Origin: Schmidtea nova
Lineage: Eukaryota
Length of the DNA: 64,000 bases
Direction of reading: 5' to 3'
Assembly: GCA_044892505.1 (NCBI GenBank)
Contig: CM097882.1
Location: 260,338,001-260,402,000 of the forward strand
How positions within the stretch are numbered: position 1 is the first letter of the stretch; every line of letters starts with the position of its first letter. Below the pieces are notes generated by a model. It worked only from the letters and a program-made list of their open reading frames with translations, had not been told where the DNA came from and searched no databases. This document shows, piece after piece, positions 9,142 to 62,610 of this stretch. A program made the translations under genes and the position numbers.

Positions 9142-9440
9142 ATTACATCTATTCTCGCTTGTGTAAATTTCTCTAATTCAATCAGACATTTGATTCGTCG
9201 GAGTTTGGTTTCTTTCATCGCAATCGGGACTATATTGGATTGCTGAATCGCAATCCATGGGTGCATCGGAATATTTACCAAGTTTCATTAATGAAAAGGC
9301 ACGATTTGAATAACATAACGACATTAATAGCGGGAATTTACTCCTATTCATATTCAAAGATTCAGTATATCTATCGAATGCACCACAATAATCTCGTTTT
9401 TACGAGTTCATTTCCAATTTTATGAAGACCGACAATTGTT
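9142..9440 (-). pseudogene. TPR-repeat protein fragment (co-chaperone type), frameshifted
   Basis: GNELVK/DYCGAFDRYTESL...[50 protein letters not shown] reads as three consecutive TPR units. Confidence 0.7.
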
Positions 9441-9449
9441 TTTACTCGA

Positions 9450-11043
9450 TTCTTCACAGGCCAGCCGAAGAAATTATAAAAATACTTCCTTTGAGTAATA
9501 GCACGGTGAAAAGAAGAATTGACGAAATGGCAGAAGATGTTGAAAATTCTTTATGCGAATATTTAAAAAATTCTAAATTTTCAATTCAACTGGATGAATC
9601 AACTCTTCCCAATAATGAGTCAATTCTATTATCTTTCGTGAGGTTTGTGAAAGAAGAAAAAGTTTATGAAGAACTATTATTTGTAAAGAGTTTAAAAACC
9701 GATACTAGAGGGATAACAGTTTTTAATGTTTTAAAAAGTTTTTTAGTTGAAAAAAATATTCCTTTTACCAATATCTTATCTGTGGCAACGGACGGTGCAC
9801 CAGCAATGACTGGTCACTACAAAGGGTTTGTGGCTCACTTAAAGGAGGAGGTTCCGGGTGTAATCTTCGTGCATTGTGTGATCCATCGTCAGCACTTGGT
9901 TGCTAAAAATCTCTCTGAGCGCTTGCATACATCCCTTAATTTTGTAGTAGGCGATCAATAAAATTAGAAGTAAAGCTTCAAATGACAGATTATTTGGTCA
10001 GTTGTGTAAAGAAAATGATGAAGATTTTAATCGCCTGTTACATACAGAAGTTCGATGGTTGTCGAAAGGTGAATGTTTAACGCGATTTTTTAACTTATTT
10101 GATTCTATTGTTCAATTTTTTGAAGAAAAAGATAGTCAATTACGAATTAATTTAATCGAGTTCAAAAACGATATTGCATATTTAACTGATTTGTATAAAA
10201 TGTACAATGAAGTTAATTTACAACTACAAGGTGAAGAATTGAATCTAATTAAAACAAAAAGTGTTATTGGTTCGTTTTTGGGAAAATTGCTTATTTTCAA
10301 GCGGAACTTTGAGCAGAAAAATTTCAGAGATTTCCAGAGCTTATATTTTTTATCCCCATCAATCAAAGAAAAAGATTTACTTTGCTATCGCCAACACCTG
10401 GATGTTCTTTATATTGACTTTAAAAAACGATTTGAAGATATTATAACTATGAATATCCCAGATTAGGTATTAGACCCCTTTCATATGATTACACTTCAGA
10501 GGCATCAGATTTAGATGTGGAGCTTCTAGAACTCACAACAAATGAGGAACTTAAGTTCAAATTTAAAAAAGGGTACCAACAATTTTGACTGCAAAAACCA
10601 GTAGCAATATTATATCCAAGACTTTGGAAAATAGTTCAAAAACTTCTGATAGCATTTCCTTCCTCTTATTTGGCCGAAAGAGGATTTAGTGTAGTAACAG
10701 CTCTGTTTTCAAAAAGAAGAAGTCGAATACAAATTACTAAGTGTGGAGATTTAAGACTTTTTTTAACAAATTTTGAACCGAATATTAAAAAATTTATTGA
10801 AATGCACCAAGCTCATCCTTCGCATTAAATAATAATTTTTAATTTAGGTCTATTATTTTTATGTTCAAATTTAAAGAATTTTCATGTATAATGTTCTTTT
10901 TTTAATTAAGTTAATTTTTAAAATGTAAAGGTTAATCGGCAAAGTGATAAAGTTGGTTGTTAAAATTTAAAATTTGACTGGTACAGCATTCAATTTGGTT
11001 ATAAAAAAATAAAAATTTGCGTGGAAAATCTTGTAAATGAAAA

Positions 11044-13106: not shown

Positions 13107-14315
13107 ATGAGTGAACAGACTTTTACTGGCGACCACGCAAAAGTGGAAACAATTCAAGCAGTTACAAGACAACAACGGAAACTCATCTTAGAGTCACTTC
13201 CGAAACAAGCACGAGATATCCTGAATTTTAATGTCAGGAAATTCAATGGAAGAAATACAGCAGAAGCAGAACTGTGGATGAAAGATATCGAAGATTGGCT
13301 TATGATGAACGAGTTGAGTCTAGTAAGCATTTTTGATTTATTATTGTCAGAAGAAGCTGGTATATTATGAAAGGATTATAAAATTCCAAATATTACCGAT
13401 AAAGAGGCAAAAGAATGGTTCAGTGACACATTCACAAAGAAAAAGTCGATCACTGATAGAATATGTGATTTAGCAAGAGTTGAACAAGAAAAAAATGAAA
13501 GATTTGCAACTTTTGAAATTAGAGTAAAAAAATTACTTGATGATATCTTCGATTGTGGATTATCCAGAGAAGAAATTGTGAGAAATATTGTTACCAATAG
13601 GGTCCACAATGAACGTTTAAAGGAGAATTTTGTTTCTAATGCCAAAATGTCAAGAGAAGAAATGCGAACATTAGCAAAGGTATTTGAATCAAACGATATC
13701 ACGGAAAGAAACGTGCGTATTGAAGAAATTCAAGCAGTGGATAGAAGGTCATATGCAAATGCGGTTCGAGAACGAAATACTCAGTGGGAGCATAAAAACA
13801 AACCAAAAGCAATAGTTCAAAATAACAGAGTATTTGAACCAAACCATCAGCGCAATATAACATATCAAGATAAACAATTTAATAGTAGTAAACCTATATC
13901 AGAAGATCAGAGAGACAGAAAAACGAATGAATATGAAGAAAGAAGACAATTACCAACCGTATCGATGAAGCATACTGCAAGGAGACTTTATAATAGATGT
14001 TGTGGATTGCCAGAGCCGAAAGAAGAGAAGTTGAAACCAGGCCAGTGTTTCTGTTGCGGGGAGAGCAATCATTTACGATTTCAGTGTCCTTTGAAAGATA
14101 GATGCTTGATTTGTGGCAAAACCGGACACACGTTTAGAGACTGCAATGTGATTAAGAAGAATTTCGAAAGGAAACAACACCAAGTATATTGTATACACGA
14201 TGAAGAACAAGATGATTCAGAAATAATTAATGAACCCCTTTTACATGATGTAGAGTATCAAAAAAACCAACGCGACCCTGTCGTACACATTTCGTCGGTG
14301 GGGTCGAGTCAATAG
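13107..14315 (+). CDS. gag: G1 gag (one premature TGA at 13368; two CCHC zinc knuckles)
   Basis: CFCCGESNHLRFQC and CLICGKTGHTFRDC. The G2 paralog has TGG at the stop position. Confidence 0.85.
14261..14306 (+). promoter_or_regulatory. -1 ribosomal frameshift signal (A AAA AAC plus hairpin)
   Basis: Heptamer is in gag phase; stem CGACCC(14273-78)/GGGTCG(14301-06) is extendable by G-U pairs; the -1 frame is open into pol. Confidence 0.75.
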
Positions 14316-14341
14316 GACAATCAAGAAATCGAAATGGAGTT

Positions 14342-17300
14342 ATGAAGGATGTGATGTATATGAAGGAAGATGGTAGGAATTGGAGTAGAATTATTCTAAA
14401 TGAAGTAGAACTTGATATGTTGTGGGATTCTGGTGCGTCAATTAGCGTAATAAGTGAAGATTATTGGAAACGTATTGGTTGTCCACCATTGATAAGTAGC
14501 AAAATAGTTTTGAGTGGTGTATTTTCGAAAGAAAATGAAATGCCATTAGGAAGTATAAAGGTTAATGCGAAATGGAACAAAAAGTCTAAAAATCTTGATA
14601 TTGTTGTTGTGAAGAAGATATGTCCAGATTTCATAGGCGGTGTTGACACCATGAAGCAGTTCGGTCTAGAATTGAAAGAGGTAAATAATATTGAAGCTTC
14701 GTTAACAAAATTAACATTCACAAATGAAGAGAGAAGAGATAAGGCTCTACAATATATTAAATGCGGGAATAATTCATCACTAGGTAATATTATTTCAGAC
14801 TTTAGTGATATTTTCATGGCATCGCGATTCGATCTTGGACATACACGTTTAATAGAACACGAAATAAAAACAACAGGACCACCGATATTACAGAATCCAC
14901 GCAGACAACCAATGCACTTAGAAACGAAAATTGACGAATTAGTATCAAACTTATTGGAAGCAGGCGTTATTAGAAGATGCCAGAGTCCTTGGAATTCACC
15001 TTTAGTGATTGTTGGAAAGAAGGATGGTTCGATCCGCATGTGTTTGGATTTTCGAAGATTGAATTCAGTAACGGAAAAATTTTCGTTTCCAATGCCCGAT
15101 ATGCAGTTATTACTGGATTGTTTAAGTAAATCAAAGATATTTACAGCAATTGATCTAGGACAAGCGTACTACCAAGTCGAATTGCAGAAGGATTCACAAA
15201 ATAAGACGGCGTTTAGTACTAAGGAAGGACAATTCTGTTTTAATCGTCTACCATTTGGGTTATCGACGGCACCAGCAACTTTTCAAAGATTAATGCATAA
15301 AATACTGGAAGGGCTTATTTTCAAAGGAGTTGTTGTATATCTGGATGATATACTAGTTTACGCAGAAAATCAAAGTGATCACGATAAACTGTTGTTGGAG
15401 GTATTTACACGGATAAGAAACACAGGCTTGAGAATTAACCCGGAAAAGTGCTCGTTCAATAAGGCGGAAATCAACTTTATTGGCCATACCGTCAGTGGTG
15501 AAGGTGTTCAGACAAATAAAACAAAAATAAGCGAAATTGAAAATGCTGCAGTACCAGAATGTGTATCACAACTCAGGGCGTTTTTAGGACTCACAAACTA
15601 TTACCGTCGATTTATAAAAAATTATGCAAAGATTGCAGCACCGTTATACGCAGCAACATCAGGTGGTGAAAAGAAAGTTATATGGTCAGAAGAATGTAAC
15701 ATTAGTTTTAATAACTTAAAGAAGGCGTTATGTGAAGCACCGATTTTAGAATTTCCGAGATCAGATCGAAAGTTTATCATTGATACAGATGCAAGTTTCG
15801 GAGCTGTAGGAGCAGTATTAAGCCAGATTAATGAAGAAGGCAGGGAAGTCGTCATAGCATACGCATCAAGACATCTGACGACTCACGAAATGGGTTATTG
15901 TGTAACAAGAAAAGAATTATTAGCACTCCATGAGTTCATTGTATATTTCAAACAGTATTTATATGGTAAAGAATTCGTCGCAAGAACCGATCACAAAGCT
16001 TTAACGTTCATGAAAAACACAAAGAAACCAATTAGCCCTCAATTTCAAACTTGGATGGCTAATTTATCGGAGTATAATTTCGAGTTACAGTACAGAAAAG
16101 GAGAAGATCATGGAAATGCTGATGGCTTATCTAGAATAAAAAATAACTTGTGCAGTCAATGCCAAACGAAACATAATGACGCAAAAGAAAAAAAATCGAA
16201 GATAAGATATATAAATAGTTTACAAGAAAATCCAAATATTTTAGAAATTATCAGAGTTAAGCAAATGGAAGACGCAAATTTAAGAGAACTTATAAAATAT
16301 TTGAAAGATGAGATTGGTCAGGTTCCAAACTTTGTGGAACAAAGTTATTTTTTCAAACATATAAAAGAACTGCAGATAAACGAAGGTTTGTTATCAATTG
16401 AAATATCTAACAAAATAGTTGTTATAGTTCCAGAGAATTACACGGAAACTTTGGTTAATTTTATGCATAAAGAATTATGTCATTTAGGTAGCAAGAAAAC
16501 GGGAAGTTATATGAAAGATTTTTTTTATTGGCCTAATATGAATCAGGATATCAAAGAGATTATCAATAAATGCCAAATTTGTGCCAAGAGGAAAATAGAA
16601 CAAGGAAGAACAAAGGAGATTTTATTACCAAGAACAGGGGAACGATTCCTTCAGCAGCTCGTTGTTGACGTTGCGTATATGGAAAAGACGAAAGGGAATA
16701 AAAAATATGTGATTGTAATTATAGATAGATTTAGTAAACTTGTGAGTTTAACGGCAACTTCAAAACAAGACGAAAACACAATCGTTAATGTAATTTTGAA
16801 TAACTGGATATACCGATATGGAAAGCCAGAAAGCATACTGACAGATAGAGGTCGGGTTTTTGAAGGAACAATAATTCGAGAATGGATGAACAAGTTTGGG
16901 ATAAAGCAAGAGTTTAGTTCACCTTACCAACATCAATCTAATGGTTTGGCAGAACGTACTATAAGAACAGTTAGAGATATGATGAGTACATCTTTGAAAG
17001 GAGAACGTAAAGAAAATAATTGGGCCGAGATATTACCGAGAATTGAATTTTGTCTCAATGCGACGAAACAAAGTACAACAAATTTCTCATCTTTTGAAAT
17101 AGTCTACGGTAGGAAAATTAATTTGTTTTCTAGTCCAGGATATGTACAGCAAATGAAAGATGAGGTACTACATACGACAAAATCAAATTTAGATAAAGCC
17201 GCTACTTCTATGCAAGAAAGAGACATAAACAAACGAGGAACAAGGCTTTTCAAGGTGGGAGAGAGAGTATTAGTAAGAATTGAGCCAAACAAACGGAAAA

Positions 17301-17429
17301 AAATGGCGAACAGTACGAAGGACCTTTTGAAATTTTAAAATTCTTGTCACCAAGACAAGTAGCACTACAATTCCAAAACTCAGTAAAGACGAGACGAATC
17401 GAATGGTTGAAGAGATGGAAATCAAATTG
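14342..17429 (+). CDS. pol: G1 pol (PR-RT-RNaseH-IN)
   Basis: LWDSGASIS, YLDDIL, DTDAS, HKELCH...CQIC, TDRG, SNGLAER. A 1-nt loss in an A-run near 17295 shifts the GPF tail (QYEGPFEIL...IEWLKRWKSN*). Confidence 0.95.
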
Positions 17430-20901: not shown

Positions 20902-23900
20902 TCCATATAATAATTACGCTCATCACTGATTCACTGACTGATTCTATAACGCTCGCTGATTGGTTGATTCTAACACTATGATATCTTTTTGATATCTTTA
21001 TGATATCTTTTTATCTTTACTCTCATTATCTCATTATCTATTATCAATACATTTTTCATAAATGTATGGGTAGGTTTAATTTTTTACTTCATTGTTTATT
21101 TTTTTAGATTTTCAGTTTTTTGAAGATGTCATCAGCATCATTTGTTAGATGCACGACGAAGAATTCTCGAATCCATATCATTATCAATTTTTTAAAAATA
21201 TTTTCCAACATGGTTATGAGCATATTTTCTTTATAATTGGGTATATTTGTGATTAGATCTGCATTGTTTTCCAAATCCAGTTAAATTAAATATAATTTTT
21301 ATTCGAAACCTCTTATATTGTGCCTAAAATTTTATGTATTTCTAACATATTCGTTGTTTTTTACAAATTTGTTTGAATGGTATTATTTGAATAGTTTGAA
21401 TGATTGTGTATCAGAATTTAATTTTATCTATTTTATCTGTATCAATCGTTACTAAATAAAATATGTCTTTTACAGTTGTCACAAATATGGATGAAACTCC
21501 TGCTTCCAGGAAGCGTCGTTTGGCAAATGAAAGACAGAAGAGATGGCTTGCAAATCAAAGCCAGGAATCACGTGCAAAAATTCGTTCTTTAGATAACATG
21601 GCTCATCAAGAACGCATTGCTCAAATGACACCTGAAAATCTAGCGGTTTTTCATGCCTCTCATGCTGATTCTCAACAACGATACATAGAAGGAATGTCTT
21701 CCCAACAATTAATTGCTCATCGAGCCGTTCACGCTGAATCTCAACAGCAATATGTCGACAGATTAACGCCTCAACAGTTGCAAGATCTTCGCACTTCCAA
21801 CTTGGCTTCTCAACAACATCGCATTGCACAAATGTCAGCAGAGCAATTGATTGCTCACCGTGTCGCTCATGCTGAATCTCAACGACGATACATAGAAGGA
21901 ATGTCTTCCCAACAATTAATTGCTCATCGAGCCGTTCACGCTGAGTCTCAACAGCAATATGTCGACAGATTAACGCCTCAACAATTGCAAGATCTTCGCA
22001 CTTCCAACTTGGCTTCTCAACAACATCGCATTGCACAAATGTCATCAGAGCAATTGATTGCTCACCGTGCCACTCATGCTGAATCACAGCAACAATATAT
22101 TGAAAGACTTACACCTCAACAATTAGAAGCGCAAAGAGAAGCTAATATTGCTTCACATCAATTGGCTCATGAACGGCAAATTCAGGCGATTCGCAACGAA
22201 GCAATTAATTTTGTAGAAGCTCGCGTTGATGAACATAGTTGTGGACTGCTAAATCATGTCTGTAAATTTTGTGATGCAAAACATTTCAAAGATGAGCGTC
22301 CATCTGATGGAAATTTTACGTCGTGTTGCCGAAAAGGAAAAATAAAACTGCCAAAACCAACGAGCGTAGACGGAGATATATTAGAGTATCCTTCATTTCT
22401 ACAAAGCATGCTATCAGATCCAGACAATCCGCAGTATAGTCATTTCCGAGATCAGATTCGTTCATACAATAATTCGTTGTCATTCGCGTCAATGGGTGCC
22501 AAAATTGTCGATTTACCGGGTCGTGGTCCGTACGTTTTTAAGATCAATGGTCAAACGCATCACAAAACATCACACATACAACCGATAAATAATGAAACTC
22601 CTCAATATGCCCAACTTTACGTCCTCGATTCAACGCAAGCAACAGATATTCGTCAAAATCATCCTGCTAATGATCAGTGCCGTCGAGAATTGATCGTTTT
22701 TTTCGAGAAAATAATAGAATCGCGACAAGTTATATGCTTATGCATGAGATCGAAGCAAGAGAAACCGAAGAAGCAGCTCAATCAGGACTACAAATTCCAG
22801 TCGTCAGCATGGCGTTGCGTCGTGATAGACAATCGGATCAGCGTCGATATAACGCACCAACATCCAATGAAATCGCAATGATTTTTGTAAATGAAGATGG
22901 CGAGCCGCCGTTCGAGCGTGACATTCACATTTATCCAAAAAATCCGCAAGATCCAAATCACTACTTTATCAATCTCCACATTCTTTCACCAAATATGGAT
23001 CCGATGACCTACTCAATTCTTTTTCCTTATGGAGAGCCAGGCTGGCAACCAAATTGGCAATGCGATTCATACGAAGGTGCTCAATTGAATAGAGTTCGCA
23101 CTAACATTAGCATGTTGCAATTCAAATGTGCCTTAACGTCGATTCGCGATAGTCAATTTAATCCTATCATCAACGCTGGAAAATTGACACAACAATGGTT
23201 GGTTGATTCATATCTGCAAGTAGAGGCCAACAATTTGAATTATATTAAACAGAAACAACAACGTCTTCGAGCTGAACAATATTCTGGACTTTCAGATCAT
23301 ATGGCTAATTTAGCACAAGAATCGAATCTAGCACCTGGTGTTTCAGTCATTCTTCCTTCGAGCTTTGAAGGATCACCGCAAAACATGCGTGAGCGATGTT
23401 GCGATTCCATGTCAATTTTTTCAAAATGGGGTGCTTCGGATTTATTCATCACATTTACTCCAAATCCGAAATACAAAGAAATTACCGAAAATTTGCGTCG
23501 TGGTGAACAAGTGAGTGACAGACCTGATTTGGTTGCACGAGCTTTCAAAATCAAACTTGATTCATTGATTGATGATTTGACAAAGAATGGTATTTTCGGA
23601 AAGTCAATTGCTTATGTTTATTCGATTGAATTTCAAAAGCGTGGTCTACCACATGCTCATATTCTGATTACACTTGCGGCAGAGCATAAATTTACAACAG
23701 CTCAAAGGATTGACGAAATTGTCTCTGCCGAAATACCATCACAAGAAAGCAATCCACGTCTGAGAGAAATCGTGTTGCGATGCATGATGCACGGCCCGTG
23801 TGGCCCAAGATTTCCAAACGCGCCATGCATGTCTGATGGAAAATGTTCGAAAAACTTTCCAAAACAATTCAATGACTCTACATCTCCAAATGTTAATGGC

Positions 23901-26246
23901 TATCCATCCTACCGACGTCGATCAACTGAGCAAGCAGAAGTCAGAGGTGTACAAATGGACAGTCGAAATGTTGTGCCTTACAACCCATATTTAGCACTTA
24001 AGTACAACGCCCACATAAACGTCGAAGTCTGCACATCTCTTCGCGCCATCAAATATATGTATACATATTCAAGGGATTCGACTGCGCTAATGTTGCCATA
24101 ACATCGAATGGAGAGCCAGAATTGAGATACAATGAGATCACTAATTTTATAAACTGTCGATATGTGAGTGCACCAGAAGCAATTTGGCGTTTACGAGAAT
24201 ACCCCATGCACGATCGATCTCACAGTGTGATGAGACTTCCAGTCCATTTACCGAATCAGCAAAGAGTCATGTTTCAAGAAGGACATGAAGAAGAAGCATT
24301 ATTAAGAGCACAAACAGGATCAACTAAGTTTCAATCGTGGTTCAAACTCAATGAAAATGACATGAATGCTCGACAATATCTATACACTGAAATCCCTCAT
24401 CACTACGTATTTTCAAAGGGAAATTGGCAAGTACGCAAGCGAGCCGGTGAAAAAGTTGTCGCAAGAATGTATACAGTTGGAGTGAAGGATGAAGAGCGTT
24501 TCTATTTGAGAATTTTATTGCTACACGTACGTGGTGCTACGAGTTTTGAATCGTTGAGAACAGTAGATGGCGTTGTTCAAGATTCTTTCAAAAGTGCAGC
24601 TGCAGCGAGAGGCTTGCTTGAATCTGATGATGAATGGAATAACTGTTTAATAGATGGCGCCATATATTTAATGCCTAAACAATTAAGAGAAATGTTCGCA
24701 TATATTTGTTGTTTTTGTCAGCCTTCTCGACCTCTCACGTTATGGCAAAATCACGTTGCTGATTTCATACTTGACTACTTGAGAAATGATCCAGAAGATG
24801 TCGCGATCAACAAAGCTCTTCATGACATTAACTCAATTCTTAAGCAGCATGGATTATCGTGTGGAAGTATTGGCTTGCCAATACCAACAGGACACGCTCA
24901 TGTCAACGATGATCAGACATTTGACATTTTGGAAGAGGATCAAGATGCTGAAGAACGAATGTCAAAACTTAATGAGAAACAATTCGATGCATTTAATCAA
25001 ATCATAAGAACAATTCACAGTCCAAATTTAAGAACTCGATGTTTTTATGTTGATGGTCCAGGTGGCTCTGGCAAAACATATCTTTATGAGACACTTTTAG
25101 CATGCCTTCGAGGTCGAGGAGAAATCGCATTAGCATTTGCCACAACTGGAATTGCATCAACATTACTCAAGGGTGGAAGGACAGTTCATAGTGGCTTCAA
25201 ATTGCCTGTGCCATTGCTTGATACGTCTGTCTCATCTATGCGACTGAATTCACCTGAAGCTGAAAATTTCAGAAACGCCTCTCTTATTTTGATTGATGAG
25301 ATCACAACGTTTATGAAAAATGGATTACGTTGCATCGACAAGCTACTGAAAGAAATAATGAACAACAAAGCGAGTTTTGGTGGCAAAACAATTGTTGTAG
25401 GTGGAGATTTTCGACAGACGCTTCCAGTCGTTTCCCGAGGCATACGTACAGATATTATTGAATGCTGTATTAAATCGAGTCCATTATGGAATGATTTTGA
25501 ACAACTTACTCTATCGACAAACATGCGAAGTGAAGGTCAAAATGAGCATAACGATTGAGCATAACTGTTGAATTTTTAAATGAGCAAACTCCATCAGGCA
25601 TGCCTCCTCATGTATTATTGCTAAAGAAAGGTGTCGTTATCATGCTGCTGAGAAATTTAAACCCCAAAAAAGGACTGTGCAACGGAACTCGATTGATTGT
25701 GGAAGATCCAGGACGAAATTTAATTAGAGCAAGAATCATTTCCACATGCAATCGCAATGATATTGTTTTAATTCCTAGAATTGATCTCGCTCCAGCTGAC
25801 ACAACATTACCATTCATATTAAAACGCCGCCAATTCCCGATAATTCCCGCGTACGCTATAACAATAAACAAGGCACAGGGCCAGTCATTCGATCATGTTG
25901 GCATTCATTTGGAGACTGCAGTATTTTCGCACGGTCAATTGTATGTGGCTTTATCACGATCAAGAGTTGCAAGCCAAGTGAAAGTGTTCATTGAATCAAA
26001 TCCACGGCAAGGAAATTTATTGAATGACGAGAGACAATTCACACGCAATGTAGTTTTTCAAGAAGTTCTTCAATAAAAACAATTTTTTTGTCAATTTTTT
26101 TTTCATTCCATATATATAACAGAAATAATTTTCAAATTGCTTAAGAATACAAGAAATTGAATTTTTAATAAATATTTAGTATGTCAAACTGTTCATTTAT
26201 TTTATGATTTGTCAACGGGCGCCTTAGGCGCCTTGCAATTAACTAG
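20902..26246 (+). mobile_element. Full-length Helitron (RepHel disrupted)
   Basis: A|TC 5' end, 3' hairpin GGCGCCTTAGGCGCC and CTAG|T end; no TSD. Confidence 0.93.
21463..26076 (+). pseudogene. Helitron Rep/PIF1-like helicase, two frameshifts plus an internal deletion near 25555
   Basis: FITFT, EFQKRGLPHAHIL, GPGGSGKT, GGDFRQ, TINKAQGQS, GQLYVALSR. Confidence 0.93.
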
Positions 26247-40532: not shown

Positions 40533-43500
40533 AGTAATGTAATGATTATTAAAAAACAATGTTGTTTAAATAATCAACAAGAACGAGTTGTTTTTAAAAA
40601 TAAATATTATTATTCTTGATGTCTGATATTAAGATAGTTACTGGCAACCACGCCGAAATTAACGCAGTTAAAACACGTAGCCAAGATAAGAAATCGGCAA
40701 GAGATGTTTTACCAAAGAAGGCTCAAGAAATCTTAGATGTTGAAATTCGTAGATACGATGGAAGATGCGCTAAGGAAGCAGAAAAATGGATTAAAGCGAT
40801 CGATGATTGGATTATAAGAAATGATCTAAAACGGACGGAAGCTTTTGATTTGTTCTTATCGGAAGAAGCGTCAATCTTGTGGAAGAATGTCAAAACCGAA
40901 GACACATCAGAGGATGATGCTAGAGAATGGTTTATAGAAACATTCACTATAAAAAAAGTCAATATTAGATAAAATCAAGGATCTTGCAACTATCAGACAA
41001 GATGACAACGAATGTTTTGCTACTTTCGAGATTCGAGTTCTCAAAATTGTGGAAGAAGTTTTATATTCAGGATTGTCAAAGGAAGAAATTGTAAGTGAGA
41101 TTATTATGCACAGAGTGAGAGATAAAAGATTAAAAGAGGTACTTACGACGAAACCTAAGATGGATCACAAAGAGAGAAGTGATTTAGCAAAAATTTATGA
41201 GAAACAGAGGACAGATCTGAAGAAATTTTGGCAGTGAAGCCAATGTCATATGCGGAAAAATTCAAAGAAGGTCTAAGGAATCGAGAGGAATTGGAGAGAG
41301 GAAAGCAAAGACTATATATACGAAAAGAACCCAGAAGTTTCGAAAACAAAGTAGAATACGGAAGATATGGACAACCAGAGTCCCAAAGATGGAAAGGACA
41401 GCAGACGGGTGAAAAGAAGATGCTAACTGTATCTCTGAAACATATAGCCAAACGGTTATACAACAGACATATGGGGTTACCAGAACCAAGGCCATGCGAA
41501 CTCAAATCAGGTCAATGTTTTTGTTGCGGAGAAGAAGGACATAGGCGTTTTGAATGTCATTTAAAGGATAAATGCTTGATTTGCGGGAAGAACGGACACA
41601 ATTTTAGAAATTGTAACCTGAATGGACGACGAGGTTACAACACCAACGTCAAGAAGATATCATGTATACACGAAGAAACGGAGGATCGCAGATATAAATG
41701 AAGAAATTCGAAATGACAGGAGAAGAAGCATGAAGTATCAGACGAGCGATGGAAGAAAATGGAGTAAGATGGTTATTAATACGGTTGAAGTAGAAATGTT
41801 ATGGGATTCGGGGGCATCAATATCAGTGATGAATGAAGAAACATGGATAAACATCGGAAAACCGAGGTTAGATGCAAGAGATATGTCGATCTGTGGCGTT
41901 TTTCCAGGAAGTAAAAGACCACTGGGACGTACGATGATAGAGGCGAAATGGAACCAAAAACAGAGGAACATATGTATTGTTGTTATGAGGGATATTTGAC
42001 CAGGATTTATTGGTGGAGTAGATACAATGAAAGCGTTCGGCATACAACTGATGGAAGTGAAAAGTATTGAAGACAATGAAATCAAGACAAACATCAACGA
42101 CAAAGACCGACTATTAAAAGCGAAAACAGACTTGCTGAAAGAGGAAAATATCGAGCTCAAGAAATTAATCACGGATTTTGCTTGAATATTTATGGCAAAC
42201 AAATTCGATTTAGGATATACCACGACGGTAGTACATAAAATTAAAACGACTGGTAATCCTGTGATGCAATATCCACGACGACAACCGATGCATCTGGAAC
42301 GGAAGGTAGATGACTTAATACAAAAGTTAGTAGAAGCAAGGGTGATCAGGCGATGTCAGGGTCCATGGAACGCACCATTAGTCATAGTAGGAAAGAAAGA
42401 CGGATCGATCAGAATGTGTGCGGATTATCGGAGTCTAAATAGTCTGACAGAGAAGGAATCTTTTCCGATGCCGAATATCACACAGGTACTGGATTGCTTG
42501 GCCGGAGCGAAGTTTTTCTCATCATTGGATCTGGGTCAAGCATATTATCAAGTGGCATTGGCAGCAAAGTCACAGGTGAAAACCGCGTTTAGTACGAAAA
42601 GCGGGCAGTTCTGTTTTGAGCGATTACCGTTCAGATTGACAACAGCTCCAGCTACATTTCAGAGATTCATGAATACTATGTTAGAAGGTATTCTTTTTAA
42701 TGGGACGGTGGTATATTTAGATGACATCCTCATATACCGGAAGGATAAATCGGAACATGACAGCCGGCTAAAAGAAGTTTTTGAAAGAATCAAAGGTACT
42801 GGCGTGAAGATAAATTCGGAAAAAATGTAAGATCTACAAGGATAAGTTAATATTTTTAGGGCATACCGTGAGTGAGTTCGGTATTCAAACTAACGAAAAA
42901 AAGATACGGGTGATTAAGGAAACTACAAGATCAAAATGTGCGAAACAACTACGCTCATTTTTGGGACTGACGAATTATTATCGAAGATTTGTCAAAGATT
43001 ATGCGTGTCTGGCATCACCACTATATGCAGCAACAACGGGGTGTGATAAGACCTTACAATGGTCTCAAAAATGTGAAACAAGTTTCGAGAATTTAAAAGA
43101 AGCCCTGATGAAAACATCTATACTGGATTACCCTAGGATGGACAGGGTATTTGTCTTAGATACGGATGCTTGTTTTGAAGCGGTAGGTGCTGTTCTGAGT
43201 CAAATCACAGAGGAAGGTAAAGAAGTAGTAATTGCGTATGAGCCGAGACACCTCACATTACACGAAAAAGGGTATTGTGTGACCAGAAAGGAATTGCTTG
43301 CATTGCATGAGTATGTTACTTATTTTCGTCAATACTTATATGGGAAGGAGTTCATAGCGAGAACCGACCACAAGGCGCTTGTATTTATGAATACGACAAA
43401 GAAAGCGATAAGTCCACAATTCCAAACATGGATGGTGAACTTATCAGAATATAATTTTAAATTGCAGTATCGGAAAGGAGTAGAACATGGGAATGCCGAT

Positions 43501-44923
43501 AGATTGTCGAGAATTGGAGGAATATTGTGCGCACAATGTCAAACACAACACGAAGAGCCGAAGAAGGAAAGAGCTAGGGTACGATATATTAATTCGATAC
43601 AAAAAACTGGCACCATGATGAAAATTATGGAAGAACAAAAGAAGGACAAGGGGTTTCAAGGAGAAAGGAATTATATCAATGAATTTTTGAATGAGGAAGA
43701 AGATTTTTTCAAGAAATCTTTCCTATATGCTCACAAAGACAGATTGAAGATCAACGGTGACCTAATTACCGTAGAGAGAGAATCCAATGATTTAGTAGCA
43801 GTTCCAGAGAGCCATCAAAAACAACTGGTTAAGAAGATTCATGAAGAATTATGCCATGTGGGGGGAAAAAAATTTTTCATTACATGGAAAATAGTTTTTT
43901 CTGGCCAAAGATGTGTGAAACAGTAAGACACGTTGTAAAAGAATGTAGTATATGTGCGAGAAGGAAAATAGATCAAGGAAGAACGAAAGAACTTTTTATT
44001 CCACGCGGAAGTATTGAGTTTCTGGAACAAATTGTAGTTGATGTAGCACACATGGAAAAGACAAGGTCCGGAAAGAGATATGTGGTTGTCATAATAGATC
44101 GGTTCAGTAAATTAGTATGCCTAACTGCGACAGAGAAGCAAGACGAAATGACGATATTCCGAATTATACTTCAAAATTGGATTTATAAATATGGAAAGCC
44201 AGAAAGTATTCTTTCAGACAGAGGGAAAAATTTTGAAGGCAGATATATGAAAGAGAAATTCGAAGTTTTAGGGATTCGTCAAGAATTCTCAGCACCATAT
44301 CAACATCAATCAAATGGATTGGTAGAAAGAGTAATTCGCACGATGAGAGATCTACTGGTGACTTCAATTCTTAGTAACAACAGGTGATATGAATGGTGCG
44401 AGATACTTCCAAGCGTGGAATTCAGTATCAATACGACGTTTCAAAGCGCAATTAAATATTCGCCATTTGAGATTGTGTATGGACGGAAAGTGTCACTTCG
44501 TGCCAATGGACAAGGATCAGAGATCAAAGGCCAAAGAGTTGATGAGAAAGTAGTTCAGAATGCTAAGTTAGCGGCGGATAGAATGAGAATTTTAGAAAAA
44601 GATCGAAGAGGTAAACGTTCTTTTGAAGTGGGGGAGGAAGTATTGGTTCGACGGGAGCCACACAGAAGGAATAAGAATGACATACAATACGATGGACCAT
44701 ATAAGATTGTTAGATTTTTGTCAGAACACCAGGTCGAGCTACAATTTCCGGATGCTAGACGACCGAGACGGATAGAGTGGCTGAAGAGATGGCATCAAAG
44801 TTGAGGAGGGGAAAGTAATGTAATGATTATTAAAAAACAATGTTGTTTAAATAATCAACAAGAGCGAGTTGTTTTTAAAAATAAATATTATTATTCTTGA
44901 TGTCTGATATTAAGATAGTTACT
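40533..44923 (+). mobile_element. Ty3/gypsy LTR retrotransposon G2 (paralog of G1, multiply disrupted)
   Basis: 110-bp LTRs (40533-40642, 44814-44923; 1 mismatch), TSD AACTG, PBS TGGCAACCACGC, PPT GAGGAGGGGAA; gag-pol with stops and frameshifts. Confidence 0.96.
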
Positions 44924-47560: not shown

Positions 47561-48889
47561 TGACATATCAACAATTTACAATGTTTACATTATCTTATGC
47601 TAATAAAAAATCTATTTAACTTTCAATTTTATATTATTGCAATAGAAGATTTATTTAGATTTTAATTCTGTCTTATTCTAATGAAAAATTTATACAAAAT
47701 TATGTCTTATTTTATGCTAAAGAATATTCATTTGAATTTTAGTCAAAATTGTTTTTTATAAAATTTATTTAGATTTTAATTGATATGATAAAAATCTTGA
47801 TTTATCATTATTTAATTTTCCACAAAAAAATTCACTCCTAAAAATATTAAATTTAAAATGTTTTTCAGTCATTACCATTCCCCTTACCGAAACTAAGTAT
47901 ATATATTCATAAAAATTCAAAATCAAACATATTACTTATAAAATTTTTAATTTCATAACATCCTATAACAGTGACTAGCTCACTATTCATGATAACCTAT
48001 AATATTAATTAGCTTCTTGCAATTTATAACATCCTATAACATTAGTTATTTTGTCTGCAACTGTAGTGGTCTAAAAGGTCGATATTGAAGCTTTTCTCAA
48101 AATATTAAAGGAACTGGTTAAATCTTAATTCAGTTTTGGAAAAAAAGAGAGAAACAAACAAATTTATTAATCAAATTCAGTTACATACAATTTGAACGAT
48201 GCGATAAATTCCCAATTCCAAATCAATAAATCAAATCCACAATTATTAAAATGTATCATTTGATAGAATGCCTCAATTCTACTCTTTGATTACTCCTAAC
48301 GGTAACGACATTGTTAGATACATTTTTCAAATTGATTACATTGAAAAAACACTTTATAAATTGGTATAATTGTGTGTTAACATTTCTTTTTGATTTGATT
48401 TAATATTTTTCTTTTGGAATACTTTCGACTTGGACATTTTTCAGTGGTTTTTTTATTTCAATTTATGTTTAAAATAAATACTTGGAATTGAAATTGTAAT
48501 TTTATTTTTTTTGAATGTTAATTAAACAAAGCAACATGTCTAGTTTAAAAGATTTAAATATAAATTCATGTATATTTCTTTTGATATTGGCAGTATTTTG
48601 TGGGGGTTTTGGTGGATGAATTATTCCTCAAGAAAATTGGAATATTTTAATTCTTGAAACAAAAGTTGTACAAATGATTGGATGGTTTCTTGTTAGAACA
48701 GCAATTCCAATTGTATAAAATGTTCTTTTTGGCTTTCTTGGGATTTTGCGAGCATCCAGATATTGTGTGATATCATGCACAATAGTTCTAACTATTAGTG
48801 GAGCATTGCTGTTCGTTTGCAATAATCGATTGGAAGATACGGTGATAGGTCATTTGAAAAAGGAATACAGTCATAATGCTGCACCAAAA

Positions 48890-49606
48890 ATGGTGTCAGA
48901 AGAAAACATCAATGGTCAATCTTCAAGTCAAGATGAAAATCAAACATTTCGCCTCAAAGTTTCACAACAGCCAGCAAGAATGAATAATTATTTTCAATTA
49001 AACTCATCTAACTATAATAATGCAAATACGCTTAGTCAAATCGAAGTCGTTAAGCAAATAGCAGCTACAATGCAACCACTATCATTTCCTATGCATTTAA
49101 TCTATCGACAAAATCAATCGTCAATTCCCATAATTTCAACCCCAGCGCAAGTAAATTGAAACTCTTAAATAGATTGTACGCAAATGGTAAAAATGCCAAC
49201 CAGTTCACAAGACTCAGCCACTAACATTCGACAGGCTTTGTATTTAATAAAACAGAACTTAATCTTTAAAAGCGATTACTCCGAACACGTTTACAATCAT
49301 ATATCAGATGCCTGCAAGTCTACAGCTCCTAATCAGTCTTTAATCGTTAACAACTCAACGAATAGTAGTCTGTCAGCAATAACAATAAGTTTATCTCCAG
49401 CCGCTTCACAGAATCAAAATTCTACAGTTTTTTCAATGAGTAACATCGACGTTCAAACATTAGAAGCGATAAATCGATCGATTTCTCAGCAGAATCCAAA
49501 ACCAATAAATTCAATGCCAGTAAATCCCAATTTTTTTCTCATTCAAGCGGATTCCAAAGTCGCTCAACAGTTGATTAATGGCTCCTCGCACAACGTCGGG
49601 TGTTAA
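48890..49606 (+). other. Q/N/S-rich coding-like segment, probably a host gene fragment
   Basis: Two same-frame ORFs of low-complexity sequence separated by a short stop-containing gap; no recognisable domain. Confidence 0.3.
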
Positions 49607-49714
49607 TTCACAGGGATACATGTCAATTGTTCAAACATCGGAAGCAACACAAATCAACATGAAAAATAGCAATAACATCAAATGTATCGTAATTTTTTCA
49701 CCAGCTCCATCGAA

Positions 49715-50305
49715 AATGAAAAGATCAGTTCTTATACGTAAATCATCAGGACATTGTTGTATAAAGTCAAAAAACAGATATCCATGTGGAATTTTAGTTG
49801 CATCTTGAAATGAATCAAGTAAAGATTTTCTATCATTAGGGTAAGCTTGTCTTGCAAGAAAATCAATAATTGTTACATCTCGTAAGTTTTTGAATATAAC
49901 CAAATATTGTACATTTAAATTCCAGGTTCTATGACTACCCCCTTGATAGAATAAATTTTGAGTAATGAAAATAACTGTAACACGCAAGTGTCTACTAATT
50001 TTTGTAAATATATTGTTGAAATCTTTTTCTTTATTGGCTTCCTGATACAAATCATCGACAATTATAACATCACCATGTTGTAATCTAGATGACCAATTTT
50101 TGTCAAAACCTTTTATAATAGTCATTTTTAATTTACAAGACTGATCCTGAGTCAATACATGTTCTTCATCAGCTCCCCGATGCCAATAAATTTTATTGAA
50201 TTTTGATTTAAACATTTTTTATTGTAATAATTCACATACAAACAAGGTTTTCCCACTCCCGCTGGGTCCTACTATTTGATATACGGCATCATTTCTTAAT
50301 TCCAT
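49715..50305 (-). pseudogene. Polinton/adintovirus A32-type packaging ATPase (one premature TAA)
   Basis: Upstream of the track ORF: MELRNDAVYQIVGPSGSGKT (Walker A); then IIVDD (Walker B), SRH, ITQNLF, GYLFFD, LRIRTDLF. Confidence 0.88.
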
Positions 50306-50361
50306 TTTTAATTAATTAATTAATTAATTAATATTGTTTATATTTGTTTAATTAATCAAAA

Positions 50362-50796
50362 ATGTTGAGCAACATCAATTATAAAGGTAAATGTTTAGTT
50401 CCCGGCATGATATTCCCGAGTGGTAAACCGAAACAAGTTGTTGACAGAAGCGGCAAGTACCCCATCATCTTCTTCAAATCTGGCAAGTGTCGGGTATTGG
50501 GATGCAAACAACCGTTAAAGTTTGGGGATTTGAAATTCAATATTAAAAATTTAGAGATTCAATTAATTACCGTGACTGTTGATATCGGCAAATTTATTAA
50601 TTTATACGAATTACAAAAGAAATGTCGTTGTTGGTTCGAACCAGAAATATTCCCTGCATTACGTCTACAGAAATTTGATCCAGGATGTGTCAATGTCTTT
50701 GGCAGCGGAAAAGTTGTTATATTTGGAATAAAAACTTTGGATTTTAAAAATTATGTGGAGAATATAATTAATGAAATAAATATATTAATTAATTAA
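50362..50796 (+). CDS. Divergent TBP-fold (TATA-binding-protein-like) protein, 144 aa, intronless
   Basis: IIFFKSGKCRVLGCK (repeat 1); IQLITVTVDIG...INLYEL, FEPEIFPAL, VNVFGSGKVVIFGIK (repeat 2). Confidence 0.8.
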   Translation: MLSNINYKGKCLVPGMIFPSGKPKQVVDRSGKYPIIFFKSGKCRVLGCKQPLKFGDLKFNIKNLEIQLITVTVDIGKFINLYELQKKCRCWFEPEIFPALRLQKFDPGCVNVFGSGKVVIFGIKTLDFKNYVENIINEINILIN

Positions 50797-50901
50797 ATAA
50801 ATTTTGTTTGTATTAATTGTTAGTCATTGATTGTGAAAATTTGAAAATGTCTAAAAGTAAGAGTATTTTTATTTTTATGTTAATTTATTCTTTTAGTTTA
50901 T

Positions 50902-51228
50902 TTGCTCGAAGTACTTCTCAAGAAAATTCAAGACTTATACCCAAAGATTAAAAATAATCTCGATTATTGTGCCCCTGAGTTGTTGGTACATAAAATATAC
51001 CAATATACAGGGATCAATATCGAGGAGTTGCTTGAAATGCACTCTGATATGGTACTTGGGGCTGGAGTCAAGTGCGTTGAAAATTGCATTGTTTGTAAGG
51101 AATCAATGCGTGTTTCATGCACCAATGGATGTGCTTGTTGCCACGATTTTAAAAGACAACAATCTGTGCATATCTTGGTTGCTGAAATAAGAAAGGCATC
51201 CTATGATGACCTTTACAATTCAAATTGA
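50902..51228 (+). CDS. Small Cys-rich ORF of the Polinton-like remnant
   Basis: CIVC...C...CACCH; located between the TBP-like gene and PolB. Confidence 0.4.
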   Translation: MLEVLLKKIQDLYPKIKNNLDYCAPELLVHKIYQYTGINIEELLEMHSDMVLGAGVKCVENCIVCKESMRVSCTNGCACCHDFKRQQSVHILVAEIRKASYDDLYNSN

Positions 51229-51289
51229 TTGCCTAAGATTTATTTAAATAAAGATTTATTTTTAAAATTGTGTTTTTTATTGTTTTTAT

Positions 51290-51843
51290 ATCGTAATGAA
51301 TTCAACTGCGAGATTGGTATAGTCGCTGGTGATACAGATTCTTTCTTCTTGGAAGTTAAGAATTGTAAGTTGGATATTCTTTTGTCTGCTATGGTTAGGG
51401 ATAGGTTATTAGATACTTCGAATTATGACTCAAATCATACCTTTTACTCGAAAAACCTAGATTCCGTCATTGGTAAATTCAAAGACGAGAATAAAGGATT
51501 CAAGTATGATGAGTGGGTGTTTATTAGGCCAAAGTGTTACAGTCTTTTAGGTGATGAAGAGTGCATTAAGGCTAAGGGTATAACATTGAAGGATACTAAA
51601 CTGAATCATCAGTCGTATCTGGATTGTTATAATGATAATTTAATAGTTTCTGTTGATCAGTCGAGAATTGTTAGTAAGAATCATCAACTCTTTACTAATA
51701 AATCTTCTAAGATTGCCTTGTCTAATCTTGACGACAAAAGTCTTTGGGTGGGAAAAAATGTTAGTCTTGCTTATGGACATTATAAGGGAATTGATGTGGT
51801 TATGGGGGTGCGTGAAGATGCTGCTGATGAACAATTTGTCTGA
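51290..51843 (+). pseudogene. Protein-primed DNA polymerase B C-terminal fragment (Polinton type)
   Basis: GDTDSFF, LDTSNY, IGKFKDE, RPKCYS, KAKGI, KIALS. Confidence 0.9.
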
Positions 51844-52549
51844 AGATGAGAAGATTTTATTTTAAATAAAGTTTTATTTTTTAAAATATTTTGTGTTTTT
51901 GTTGTTTTTCTAGTTATTATTACTTTTTATTGTTGAGCGTTAAATTCTGATTATTTATATGTAACAGTTCTAGAATTTTAACCATTTTTAACCAAATAAG
52001 GTTTTTTCATGTTAAATTTATCGGAGAAGACCAATTTTTCGTGTTTTTACTTTTTGACCCTTTTATGTTCGCCATTGAATTCTCATTAGATTGGTAAAAA
52101 AAATTTAAATCTGAGCATTTTTGAAAGTTTTGGAAAATATTTTGAAAAAAAATTAATTTATTTTATATTTCTTGTAAGAATTATGAAAAAATAAAGAAAA
52201 ATTAATAAATTTCAGTGTTATGTCATCAATTGCGTAAGAAATAAGGGGCTATACAATTTTTAAGGTTTTATAAAATTATGTAATATATGAAGTATTATGT
52301 AATAATCACGAATGATTACGAAATATATAAATTATTACGTGTTTCATATGTATTATGTGAATCATTGCGTTAAAATTACGTTATATAAAGTATTATGTAA
52401 TGATTACATGATATAAAAGGTATTATGTAACATATAAAGTATTATGTAAATACTGTGTAATATATAAAGTATTGCGTAATTTCTTATAAACTGTATAGTT
52501 ATTACTTAATATATACAGTTTAGGGATAAATGGCTTGTGCTAGACCGCT

Positions 52550-54314
52550 CACTATCCCCTACTAACGACAGTGAAAATTTCTAAATATGAAAGATGTGCC
52601 AATGAATTATCAGTAAGTGTCAGCGGAAAATTACGGTTTATGGAACCGATAACCCTAATATTGCATGAGGAGCAAGTCAAACCGAATTTTTTACAATGTA
52701 ATCGATTATTAGCTTCATTATATAGTCTGGCACAGGATTCGTGGATAGCAATGCAAGATTACTGAAGAGAAAGAACGCCAGACAAATTGGAATTGACAAA
52801 TTTAGAATACTTAATAAATTTTACATCAATGAAAAAAATGGTACAAATGGGTTTATATGCGAGCGAAGACATTGAAGAAGCCCAAAGAAATTTGTTATTT
52901 CCGTCAAAAAGGAACATGTGATTTCAGAAATGATTGATACGATATTGACAAATGGAGAATATTTGCTGACATCTGACCATTTTTAAACGAGATACTTACA
53001 AAACGATGGAAAATATTTGGGGTAAATTTATTTTTCTTGGACAAGCATGTGCAGGATTTATTGGCATCGAGATAATTGCAGTACAGTAAAGGTAATAATA
53101 TCGCAAGTATTATCAGCTCATAGAATATATACAATTTCCGGATGGTCATGGGAAATAATTTAGGCTGTATTCCATTTTTGGCTAGATTTTTCATTACAAG
53201 TCATCAATACAAAGAAATGGCAAATATAAGGGTACAATGGAAAAATTATCAAAGACGTGAAGAATCACGATGCGACTCGGAGAATAAAAATCATGGCTGT
53301 AATAATGATAACAATGGGAGTAGATCAGAGCAGAAATCTTTTCGAAGGAGTATAATAAAAAGTAGAATAGAACTCAAATCTAGGTTGTTACTTGAATCAA
53401 TGTCAAAACTAACTGGAATTGTTAATATTTTTCAATGGTATACACCGACATATATACCAACAGCTGCAGTATACCAAAGTGAAAAATAGAGAGAAATGAA
53501 GCCAGTTGATGAGATTTAAGTCGAATTAGAAAAGATTGAACCATCAAGTGCCGAAATTGAAAGAAAAAATATGTTTGGTTTACCTTGAAGTAACGCATTT
53601 TTGACAATGGAATTGGGAGGAAAACAAGCTCGGACAGTTTAATAAACAGTAAGTTGAAGCATTGTTGGATTCAAGCTCAATTCACAGCATCGTATCAGAG
53701 AGTTTCTTAACGAGACATGATAAAGCCATAAACAAAAATTATTAAATATATGACCCATAACGTATTAAATATTATTGGGAAATTAGAAGTCAAGTTGAAT
53801 ATTGGAAATCAGAAGTAACGTTAATGAGAAAAGCCCTGTCAAATGTTTGATTGACATGTACATCATGGAAAAATTACAAGGAATCTCACTTGACTTAAAA
53901 CGGGAAAATTAATAAAAAGGCAGACTGATAATGTAGTACATGAAACAGGATAAGTCTTTTTAAATCAAACCATGGAAGTACTACCAAAAAGTGAATTAAT
54001 ATACTATGCCAATGCAGGTAATATTTCCGAATCCGAGTGCATTTTTGAACCAAATCAAAAATTAATAGAAAAGTACGACGTACCTATGTGTGACGAAATA
54101 GTGAAAATTAAAGACAAAACCGTGCCAGCGAGAATAGTTAATTGCACCACAAAATCTATTCAGGTGAAACCCAAAACAAAGTTGGGGAAACTGACAACTT
54201 TGAAAGAGGAAGAAGCACAAAAACAGCCTAGAATTATCAAGATATATAAAGAACCTCAAATGACAAGTGACGATTTAACAGAGGCACAAAAACAAGAATT
54301 TGCTGCATTATTAA
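52550..54314 (+). mobile_element. Degenerate gypsy G3, gag-protease part
   Basis: Heavily disrupted gag/PR-like frames ending LTEAQKQEFAALL, which continues in frame at 58614. Confidence 0.55.
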
Positions 54315-60672: not shown

Positions 60673-62610
60673 CTATGCCAATGTTTCCTCTTCTGATTTG
60701 ACAACAACTCTCTTTATTATGTTTAGTATTACAGTTCTCTTTTCATCAATTTCTTTTTTTTTGAACCAATCTGCGAGACTGACAGTGAAATATTCGAAAG
60801 AGAAAGTTTTGATTGGTTTCTGAAATAGAAAAAAGATATTTTAATAAATCAACAAATAAAAATTAATAAAAACGACCAATAAAAAAATTCATTAATAAAA
60901 ACGACCAATAAAAATTAACTAATAAAAAAATTCAATAAAAATTAACCAATAAAAATTAACCAATAAAAAAATCCAATAAAAATTAACCAATAAAAAAATT
61001 CAATAAAAATAGACCAATAAAAATTAACTAATAAAAAAATTCAATAAAAATTAACCAATAAAAAAATTCAATAAAAATAGACCAATAAAACTCACCTGAA
61101 AAAAACATTCCAAATAATGAAGCAAATAAATTCCACAATCAAAGAAATTTTTCTGTTGTGGAACTTTCGGTAAATATCCTCTTACTGTCGATTTATCAAA
61201 TATCAATTTGCCGTCATTTTTCAATCGTTTTACATCCCACTCCGATTTTAAATAGTCTCTAATGATATTGACTTTATCAGTCCTACGTTGCAGCGACAAT
61301 GAATCAAGAACGAGAATACACGGCATCGGATTCAATTGTGGGTCTTCGGCTTTCAACTTTGCCAATTTCTCTTGACGAAACTTGGTAGCGAATTCGGTTT
61401 TATTTTCCGGAATAAAAGACATTTGAGCAACTGCTGATTTATTCAACAATTGGTTGTAGTCAATCATCCCGGCCATCCAAGGAAAACAGACAATCACGAG
61501 AAACCAATGCTGATTTTCAATAACTGGAATAATGATAAAATCCTTATCGAATATGTCAACGTTTTTCGTCCATTTAGAAACGCGTTCGTGTCGAATTTTC
61601 GAATCATCTAATTTACAATTATCTGTCGACCGCCCAATAAGCTTTGTATTGAAAAAACAATTGAAAATGTGAGTTCTTTGTCGTTGATTTTCCGTCATAA
61701 TCTCATTAAAAATATACGCGATGTAGAGATTGATAATGTTGTCATTAACGTAAACATAAGGCTTCAAGCACCGAAAATCCGACGATGTGATCTCAATACT
61801 GTGACTGTGTTTCGGTGAATAAACGTATTTGGATTCCGATGATTTGGACCTAGTTTTCTTTTGTAAATCGCAATTTATATCGTCTTTCAACTTTTTGTTC
61901 GATGATAAATTAAATGAAAAATCTTCTTTTTTTCTTTTACAAGAACTTTTAGGTGATTTTTGTATTGTCAGTGCATTTGATTCATTGGAACTTGGTTGAA
62001 TGTTGTCGTTTTTAAACAAATATCTTGTCCAATCGTAGATAAATTCATTTTCACTGCAATCATGTTTGTACATAGTCGAACAAAATGAGTTGTATAATTC
62101 TTTATTCATTGTAGTGATTTTCGTGGAATACGTCTTCATTTTTAGTAAACACTTGATTATTTGTATGTAATCTTTATTAGATTTAAAATCCAAACAAAAC
62201 CAGATTCGTTTTATGAATAACATTTCATTGGTGTTGTGTTGAGATTCTTTCAATGAAATCATAATCAAACAATTTTTTTGGTTATAGTGAATCGATAAAA
62301 CTTCCTCGGATGGCAATGTCGTTGATATTGACATATTAGACTTTAAACTTTTAAAACAATCAAAGGTTATTCCAGTTATGGAGATTTTGAGGAATTTATC
62401 TTTAGGAATTAAAATATGTTTCGAGCTAAAACAAACATATTTCAATGGTAGACTTAGAAGTTGTGGATTTCTTGATTCAATGCTAAATGCTATTTGTTTC
62501 TAAAATGAAACAAAGAGATATTAATTTCAAATTTTAAATAAATGTTAAAATTTACTCGAACTTCAGATTGTTTATTGCTATACCAAAGTAAACCAGGATC
62601 ACTCATTAAA
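60673..62610 (-). CDS. SENP6/7: SENP6/SENP7-type (Ulp2-like) SUMO protease, spliced; 5' start uncertain
   Basis: YVNDNIINLY, RVSKWTKNVDIF, QHWFLVIVCFP, PCILVLDSL, PQQKNFFDCG. Introns 60820-61095 and 62500-62555 (GT-AG, phase 0) give ...FFQ|KPIKTF...LADWF...EKRTVI. Confidence 0.9.

Follow-up and report, generated by a model that had tools for sequence, protein, structure and literature searches.

TBP and TFIIB are a DNA-dependent pair. On the TBP side, the contacts with TFIIB are made by two Glu of a loop in the C lobe, and the patch that binds TFIIA, TAF1, Mot1 and Brf1 is found mainly on helix H2 of the N lobe (PMC7221094). The TBPs of large viruses are reported to have diverged at the TFIIB-contact Glu and to be often accompanied by a TFIIB of the virus itself (PMC7221094). 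As described in the available portions of PMC12529657, ORF24 of KSHV is a large multi-domain protein which belongs to a six-protein complex, binds the polymerase directly and does not employ TFIIB in the conventional manner; the late genes of beta- and gamma-herpesviruses carry a variant TATA word, TATTWAA, and the early genes keep host-type promoters (PMC12529657).

For Polintons, the element and TBP are brought together by a legend label in Fig. 5 of PMC8502044 (also in the preprint), in the part that deals with non-animal datasets, and no analysis accompanies it in the available portions of that source. TBP and TATA receive no mention in the available text of PMC6431247, PMC11161782 and PMC12220804, or in the available supplements of PMC8502044 and PMC11131425. 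Beyond this label, no description of a conserved mini-TBP paired with a promoter word was found in the accessible literature on Polintons, of which subscription papers, Repbase notes, figures and bioRxiv supplements may hold more.

The window, which is the whole 64-kb stretch of DNA analysed here, contains what the first-pass annotation had called a Polinton/adintovirus-type remnant with its own TBP-like gene, a description borne out by the TBP fold of the product and by the linkage of its relatives to Polinton genes in the same genome and in metagenome loci. The features of the locus are:

48700..49720, no strand: dispersed repeat unrelated to the Polinton (40/40 scored matches, hence at least 40 copies)
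49717..52563, no strand: right-end remnant of a family A Polinton/Maverick, 89% identical to the terminal 2.9 kb of a full 15.5-kb element
49717..50305, minus strand: gene for an A32-type packaging ATPase, disrupted by an in-frame stop (codon 29) and by the loss of about ten codons at its 3' end
50336..50342, minus strand: TATAAAC word, candidate late core promoter, ~37 bases ahead of the ATPase start codon
50362..50796, plus strand: miniature TBP-like gene, 144 aa, intronless (from the ORF, Pfam, predicted fold and conservation)
50847..51228, plus strand: orf127, a conserved gene with invariant His/Cys residues, 3' of the TBP-like gene
51288..52563, no strand: terminal inverted repeat (TIR), ~1.3 kb, from TIR alignments
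51288..51843, plus strand: 3' end of pPolB (motif C onward), duplicated within the TIR, from the ORF and comparison with whole copies

The remnant finishes at the terminus of family A, at 52563 and not at 51843 where its end had been placed, and no left end of a family A copy was seen in the 64-kb window or in the 10 kb before it. All 29 of the other fetched loci align to the window from one common point, ~49717, and the match to the dispersed repeat extends over the remnant's first 4 bases and stops there. The fusion to this repeat at ~49717 is the junction that cut the window copy and truncated its ATPase gene, and the copy, which belongs to an older subfamily, is a dead fragment. The TBP-like gene had been placed between a packaging ATPase and PolB; the ATPase, divergent on the minus strand, does lie on one side, but on the other side orf127 intervenes before the PolB piece. 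In the same way, the neighbours had been considered broken, which is correct for the ATPase but not for the PolB piece, this being normal content of the TIR. As to the rest of the window, two Gln/Asn/Ser-rich open frames are located inside the dispersed repeat at 48719-49606 and display no Pfam match, and a 482-codon frame at 61051-62499(-) carries a Ulp1 domain (Peptidase_C48, E 6.8e-28). We take the frames at 21460-26076 to be Helitron-like Rep/helicase, the regions at 13371-17338 and 41201-44804 to be Gypsy-like gag-pol, and 9392-10466 to be a hAT-like transposase remnant.

Whole copies of family A measure ~15.5 kb, with TIR alignments of 1.2-1.7 kb and AG...CT ends, and clear 6-bp target duplications were found in 4 of the 9 loci examined. 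They encode an integrase (rve, E 2.7e-8, with a weak chromodomain), whose gene shows an apparent 46-base GT-AG intron in the sequence and is absent from the window remnant, an adenain-type protease (Peptidase_C5, E 1.6e-5), a pX-like protein, the TBP-like gene and orf127. The ATPase of another copy matches Pox_A32 in Pfam at E 2.1e-6, and the pPolB of a whole copy matches DNA_pol_B_2 at E 6.8e-31 once its Asn-rich N terminus is excluded, the full ORF giving no match. ORFs of 409 aa and 340/348 aa are conserved at the place expected for capsid genes and gave no Pfam, PHROG or PDB sequence match; by size and position, we take these three ORFs to be the major (MCP) and minor capsid genes. An element with pPolB, integrase, ATPase, protease, long TIRs and 6-bp duplications is a Polinton/Maverick.

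The full pPolB gene (~1300 codons), of which the window contains the 3' end alone, is found at the opposite end of the whole copies. One and the same PolB peptide is found within frames of 198 codons and as the last part of those of ~1300 codons, and the piece at 51288-51843 has no in-frame start codon ahead of motif C; the family A TIR has expanded to take in the 3' ~185 codons of pPolB. The idea of a decayed PolB gene was rejected, these codons being a regular part of the family A TIR. Between the window and young copies this untranslatable piece displays a dN/dS of ~0.2, as expected if the two TIRs were homogenised during replication. The family B TIR ends before reaching the polymerase gene. 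The pPolB of the family, as seen at L169:940-4857(-), contains an insert resembling endonuclease VII and, close to the N terminus, a long tract of Asn residues. A tandem array at G000:C1:569597074-569630675 (L032-L036) repeats a unit of 8295 bp, which consists of a deleted family A element, from the TIR to a minor capsid gene, and an unrelated 632-aa ORF.

The gene at 50362-50796(+) is, as had been annotated, an intronless 144-aa ORF with two FxSGK...G.K repeats and EPEIFP. Its product matches Pfam PF00352 (TBP) over residues 64-137 at E 1.5e-12, above the curated cut-off, and all 35 matches listed in the PDB sequence search are TBPs or TBP fusions, the best at E 1.6e-10. An AlphaFold2 model built on a 14-sequence alignment reached a pLDDT of 91.7; both lobes have their strands, but the first 80 residues are free of helix. 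Structure searches with this model agree with the TBP fold that had been proposed: Foldseek against the PDB gave 44 matches at E<=0.001, every one listed being a TBP, and VIA aligned all 144 residues to human TBP (Z 12.1, rmsd 2.7), the first unrelated chain standing at Z 6.8. The 144-aa protein, as modelled, has the two-lobed TBP saddle fold. Its identity to cellular and archaeal TBPs is 24-27%, and its length is 144 vs ~180 residues (PDB 7egb_P, 2z8u, 1cdw). The first repeat is indeed shortened, since N4 and F38 are 34 residues apart (34-64 in the family, median 38) compared to 47 in cellular TBP, and F38 and Q67 are 29 apart (family median 30) compared to 42; the second lobe has a normal length. 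According to both model and sequence, the N-lobe helices H1/H2 are absent, and the protein is 13 residues short at the place of H2.

Conservation was next counted among 49 relatives of the window protein. Three of the four DNA-intercalating Phe are kept, namely F38 (47/49), F97 (49/49) and F113 (49/49), but the one of the first repeat is gone, with PxxF there in 4/50, and the usual symmetric kink may therefore not form. N4 of cellular TBP is also kept and, judging from the alignment, the TFIIB-contact Glu-x-Glu loop is retained as E93-P94-E95 (E93 48/49, E95 47/49). No member of the TFIIB family was seen among the 13 element ORFs or the 50 neighbouring ORFs scanned. The protein departs from a canonical TBP in two features, the set of four intercalating Phe and the basic patch of N-lobe H2. 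Furthermore, Val, Val, Thr, Asn, Ile and Leu of cellular TBP are replaced by Asn6, Arg44, Met46, Ser68, Arg101 and Asn111, which are near-invariant in the family (R44 47/49, M46 49/49, S68 48/49, R101 44/49, N111 49/49). These positions presumably face the DNA, as in known TBP structures, and a face that is rebuilt yet fixed suggests that the target, too, is different and fixed. In the window copy, positions 46 and 68 are both Leu, where 49/49 and 48/49 relatives share another residue.

In the genome from which the window comes, the TBP-like gene gave at least 150 matches, all full length and with 92-100% identity. Two further families of the same genome (68% and 58% identical) keep the order ATPase, TBP-like gene, orf127 seen in family A, and 15 of the 15 loci fetched there with a distant ATPase query carry the TBP-like gene. 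Metagenome data yielded 67 loci, a few of the weakest being cellular-type TBPs; a Polinton core gene is also present in 29 of the 67, and in 19 of the 25 that reach at least 3 kb. Outside the genome of origin, 13 proteins were found at 41-76% identity, and clustering at 50% identity gave 56 clusters at E<=1e-30. Gene order around the TBP-like gene varies among elements, the gene being often beside ATPase or protease genes. Searching viral contigs with the ATPase alignment or the major capsid candidate gave no match, and searching them with the TBP-like profile returned one giant-virus-like contig. Between the families of the genome, the dN of the TBP-like gene is 0.22-0.38 for a dS from 1.05 to saturated. 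Hence, the gene is under purifying selection, and it is a standard, ancestral cargo of one Polinton/Maverick lineage. Other cargo found near it varies (L079, L092, L103, L109, L125, L129) and includes a dual-specificity phosphatase, a ubiquitin-conjugating enzyme, an LRR protein, a RING finger, a PLA2-like domain, KilA-N and a C2H2 finger.

In a FastTree phylogeny of 58 sequences and 162 columns, in which branches are long, the Polinton-linked proteins fall into a single clade (support 0.95) that excludes the host TBP-family genes. The clade adjoins unlabelled archaeal-looking sequences, but with such long branches no donor is claimed. The near-full-length proteins of L135 and L145 stand at its base, those of L125 and L129, with both helices kept, come next, and the minimal forms are nested. 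The first-pass annotation was right in considering the protein too diverged to be the host TBP: the host genes (L147-L150) are separate in the genome and in the tree, and a host TBP or a retrocopy of it was rejected on these grounds. Host TBP shares 87% identity with the TBPs of molluscs and other lophotrochozoans. The host family consists of four genes, i.e. a canonical one (L147), a second with an inverted partial duplicate (L148/L151) and two strongly diverged paralogues (L149, L150), one of them intronless.

The conserved gene orf127 lies 3' of the TBP-like gene in all three families of the genome, and a short GT-AG intron within it is likely at 50857-50896, judging from the sequence. The gene has no Pfam match, and the model of its product (pLDDT 65) has no fold match; such a weak model without a fold match gives no support for a TFIIB-like partner. 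Relatives of orf127 were found only in loci of the genome of origin and in none of the metagenome loci, where the neighbours vary.

In order to compare promoters, matches starting near the N terminus were retained, their start codons were inferred, the 70 bases upstream were taken and near-duplicates were dropped. The word TATAAAC was first picked by eye and then counted against shuffles. Of 16 elements, 13 have it ~35 bp ahead of the ATPase gene, against a mean of 0.45 and a maximum of 3 in shuffles and none on the reverse strand; in 11 of these 13 it lies at -32 to -37, within non-coding sequence. It also precedes the ATPase in 29/29 other family A loci. Ahead of the MCP gene it is found in 9/10 (shuffle mean 0.13). 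The shorter ATAAAC precedes the minor capsid gene in 8/9 and a 135-aa gene in 7/8, and is weaker ahead of the integrase (5/10) and the protease (3/5). Upstream of the TBP-like gene itself TATAAAC occurs in 1/39; there, an ordinary TATAAA[ATG] is found in 14/39 (shuffle mean 5.5, max 12) and TCA(T/C)(A/T)ATT near the start in 22/39 (shuffle mean 0.87). The word ahead of MCP falls in coding DNA and is read ATA AAC in 10/10, and both codons are rare in the element (ATA 46/213 Ile codons, AAC 37/226 Asn codons). Across the whole elements of the genome TATAAAC is not enriched, with 27 occurrences vs 22.9 expected; the signal is positional.

L135 and L145 have TBP-like proteins with a different DNA face, the changes lying at positions 44, 46, 101 and 111. 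In these two elements TATAAAC is ahead of none of the ORFs (0/14 in L135, 0/15 in L145), and CGTAAGA is ahead of 5/14 ORFs in L135 and of 4/15 in L145, in the latter four times at -35/-36; CGTAAGA is absent ahead of the ATPase in both. In L139, L141 and L143 neither TATAAAC nor CGTAAGA was found. Since L135 and L145 are sisters, this co-variation of face and word counts as one independent contrast. L135 also encodes a PC4 coactivator near its near-full-length TBP-like gene. We take TATAAAC to be one base off the canonical TATA box and ATAAACA to fit the forkhead consensus, so that a host factor may read the word. TATAAAC could also be general to Polintons, the elements counted being all carriers of the gene.

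Taken together, these results argue for the TBP-like protein being probably an element-encoded factor for late promoters, working like herpesvirus ORF24. Host TBP/TFIID would first transcribe the TBP-like gene. Its product would then bind the minor groove of TATAAAC through the rebuilt, more polar face (N6, R44, M46, S68, R101, N111) and bend the DNA, and the kept acidic Glu-Pro-Glu loop would recruit host TFIIB, hence host RNA polymerase II; since TFIIB is not used conventionally by KSHV ORF24, this recruitment step could differ. The protein, having no N-lobe helices, would escape control by TFIIA, TAF1 and Mot1/BTAF1, and the packaging, capsid and integrase genes would thereby get a private second wave of transcription. 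Binding, recruitment and timing are what we infer from the fold, the residues, the selection, the linkage and the positions of the words. A stronger form of the proposal is a two-step programme with a private promoter code, in which a minimal TBP, free of N-lobe regulators, docks TFIIB and reads TATAAAC, and in which face and word have changed together across the lineage, to CGTAAGA in the other branch; we hold it more tentatively, at somewhat below an even chance. If true, this protein would be smaller than any other natural TBP known, and no transcription switch of their own would have been described for Polintons before.

The first-pass annotation had left a choice between a transcription factor and a decoy. 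A decoy or repressor would bind TATA DNA or soak up TFIIB unproductively and so damp host or early element transcription, TATAAAC being read by host TBP or a forkhead factor. The kept Glu-Pro-Glu loop, the lost N-lobe helices and the missing Phe would also suit such a dominant-negative protein, and TATAAAC is TATA-like. However, a decoy has no need for a novel invariant polar DNA face, the word changes together with the face in L135/L145, and the TBP-like gene itself avoids TATAAAC (1/39). Given the promoter word, the transcription factor fits better and the decoy, which we regard as unlikely, less well. Slightly less likely again is a reader of TATAAAC which brings the polymerase by another route, with an element partner such as orf127 or PC4, as in the herpesvirus late complex. 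KSHV ORF24 does work within a viral complex (PMC12529657), orf127 follows the TBP-like gene in all three families of the genome and a PC4 gene is nearby in L135, but the restriction of orf127 relatives to loci of that genome and the retention of E93 and E95 (48/49 and 47/49) speak against this route.

A role outside transcription, as an architectural DNA bender for replication, integration or packaging at the AT-rich ends, appears improbable. It would agree with the very AT-rich TIRs and spacers and with the frequent position of the gene beside ATPase or protease genes, yet this position varies among elements, the TFIIB-contact Glu pair is kept and the word stands at promoter distance. As for the window copy alone, its intact ORF among broken neighbours had been noted with a hint of selective retention, and a stop-free ORF adjoining a broken ATPase could be taken for a domesticated host gene kept while the element decayed. 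Compared with two young copies, however, its dN is 0.030, equal to that of the ATPase (0.032-0.037), an open frame of this kind survives 10-22 random substitutions in 58-31% of cases, the private changes at 46 and 68 affect two near-invariant DNA-face positions, and at least 149 other full-length copies exist. The hint of special retention is therefore not supported, and domestication is largely refuted by the same data and very improbable.

With a factor and a promoter word specified, the reading as an element-encoded late-promoter factor makes the switching-on of virion genes of Polintons in animals testable by means of one small protein and short oligonucleotides. If true, small integrating DNA viruses would have reached the same late-gene solution as herpesviruses, a natural minimal TBP would separate TFIIB recruitment from TFIIA/TAF1/Mot1 control, and matched protein-word pairs would be available for the study of how TBP specificity changes. 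Moreover, with at least 150 full-length copies in one animal genome, it may be asked whether host promoters are within reach of the protein.

With regard to known systems, the elements are like Polintons/Mavericks and adintoviruses as described in part in PMC8502044, with pPolB, rve integrase, A32 ATPase, adenain protease, a pX-like gene, long TIRs and 6-bp target duplications. The protein resembles cellular and archaeal TBP in its two-lobed saddle and in keeping N4, F38, F97, F113 and Glu-Pro-Glu; unlike cellular TBP, it is missing the N-lobe helices and the first-repeat Phe, and hydrophobic positions of the DNA face are now invariant Asn, Arg, Met and Ser. It shares a viral TBP fold and an eroded N-lobe regulator surface with the TBP-like proteins of Nucleocytoviricota (PMC7221094), and 16 BFVD matches were obtained at E<=0.001. 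In contrast to those TBPs it keeps the Glu pair, no TFIIB gene was seen in the elements, and its carriers are integrating elements of ~15 kb. Finally, it is like the herpesvirus vTBPs (ORF24/BcRF1/UL87) in having a virus-type TBP fold, a polar DNA face and a variant TATA word ahead of what would here be late genes (PMC12529657), but it is a bare 144-aa TBP core with no polymerase-binding N-terminal domain and with the TFIIB-contact residues kept. BcRF1- and UL87-type entries are weak fold matches (E 0.006-0.1); the resemblance to herpesvirus vTBPs is an analogy and not family membership.
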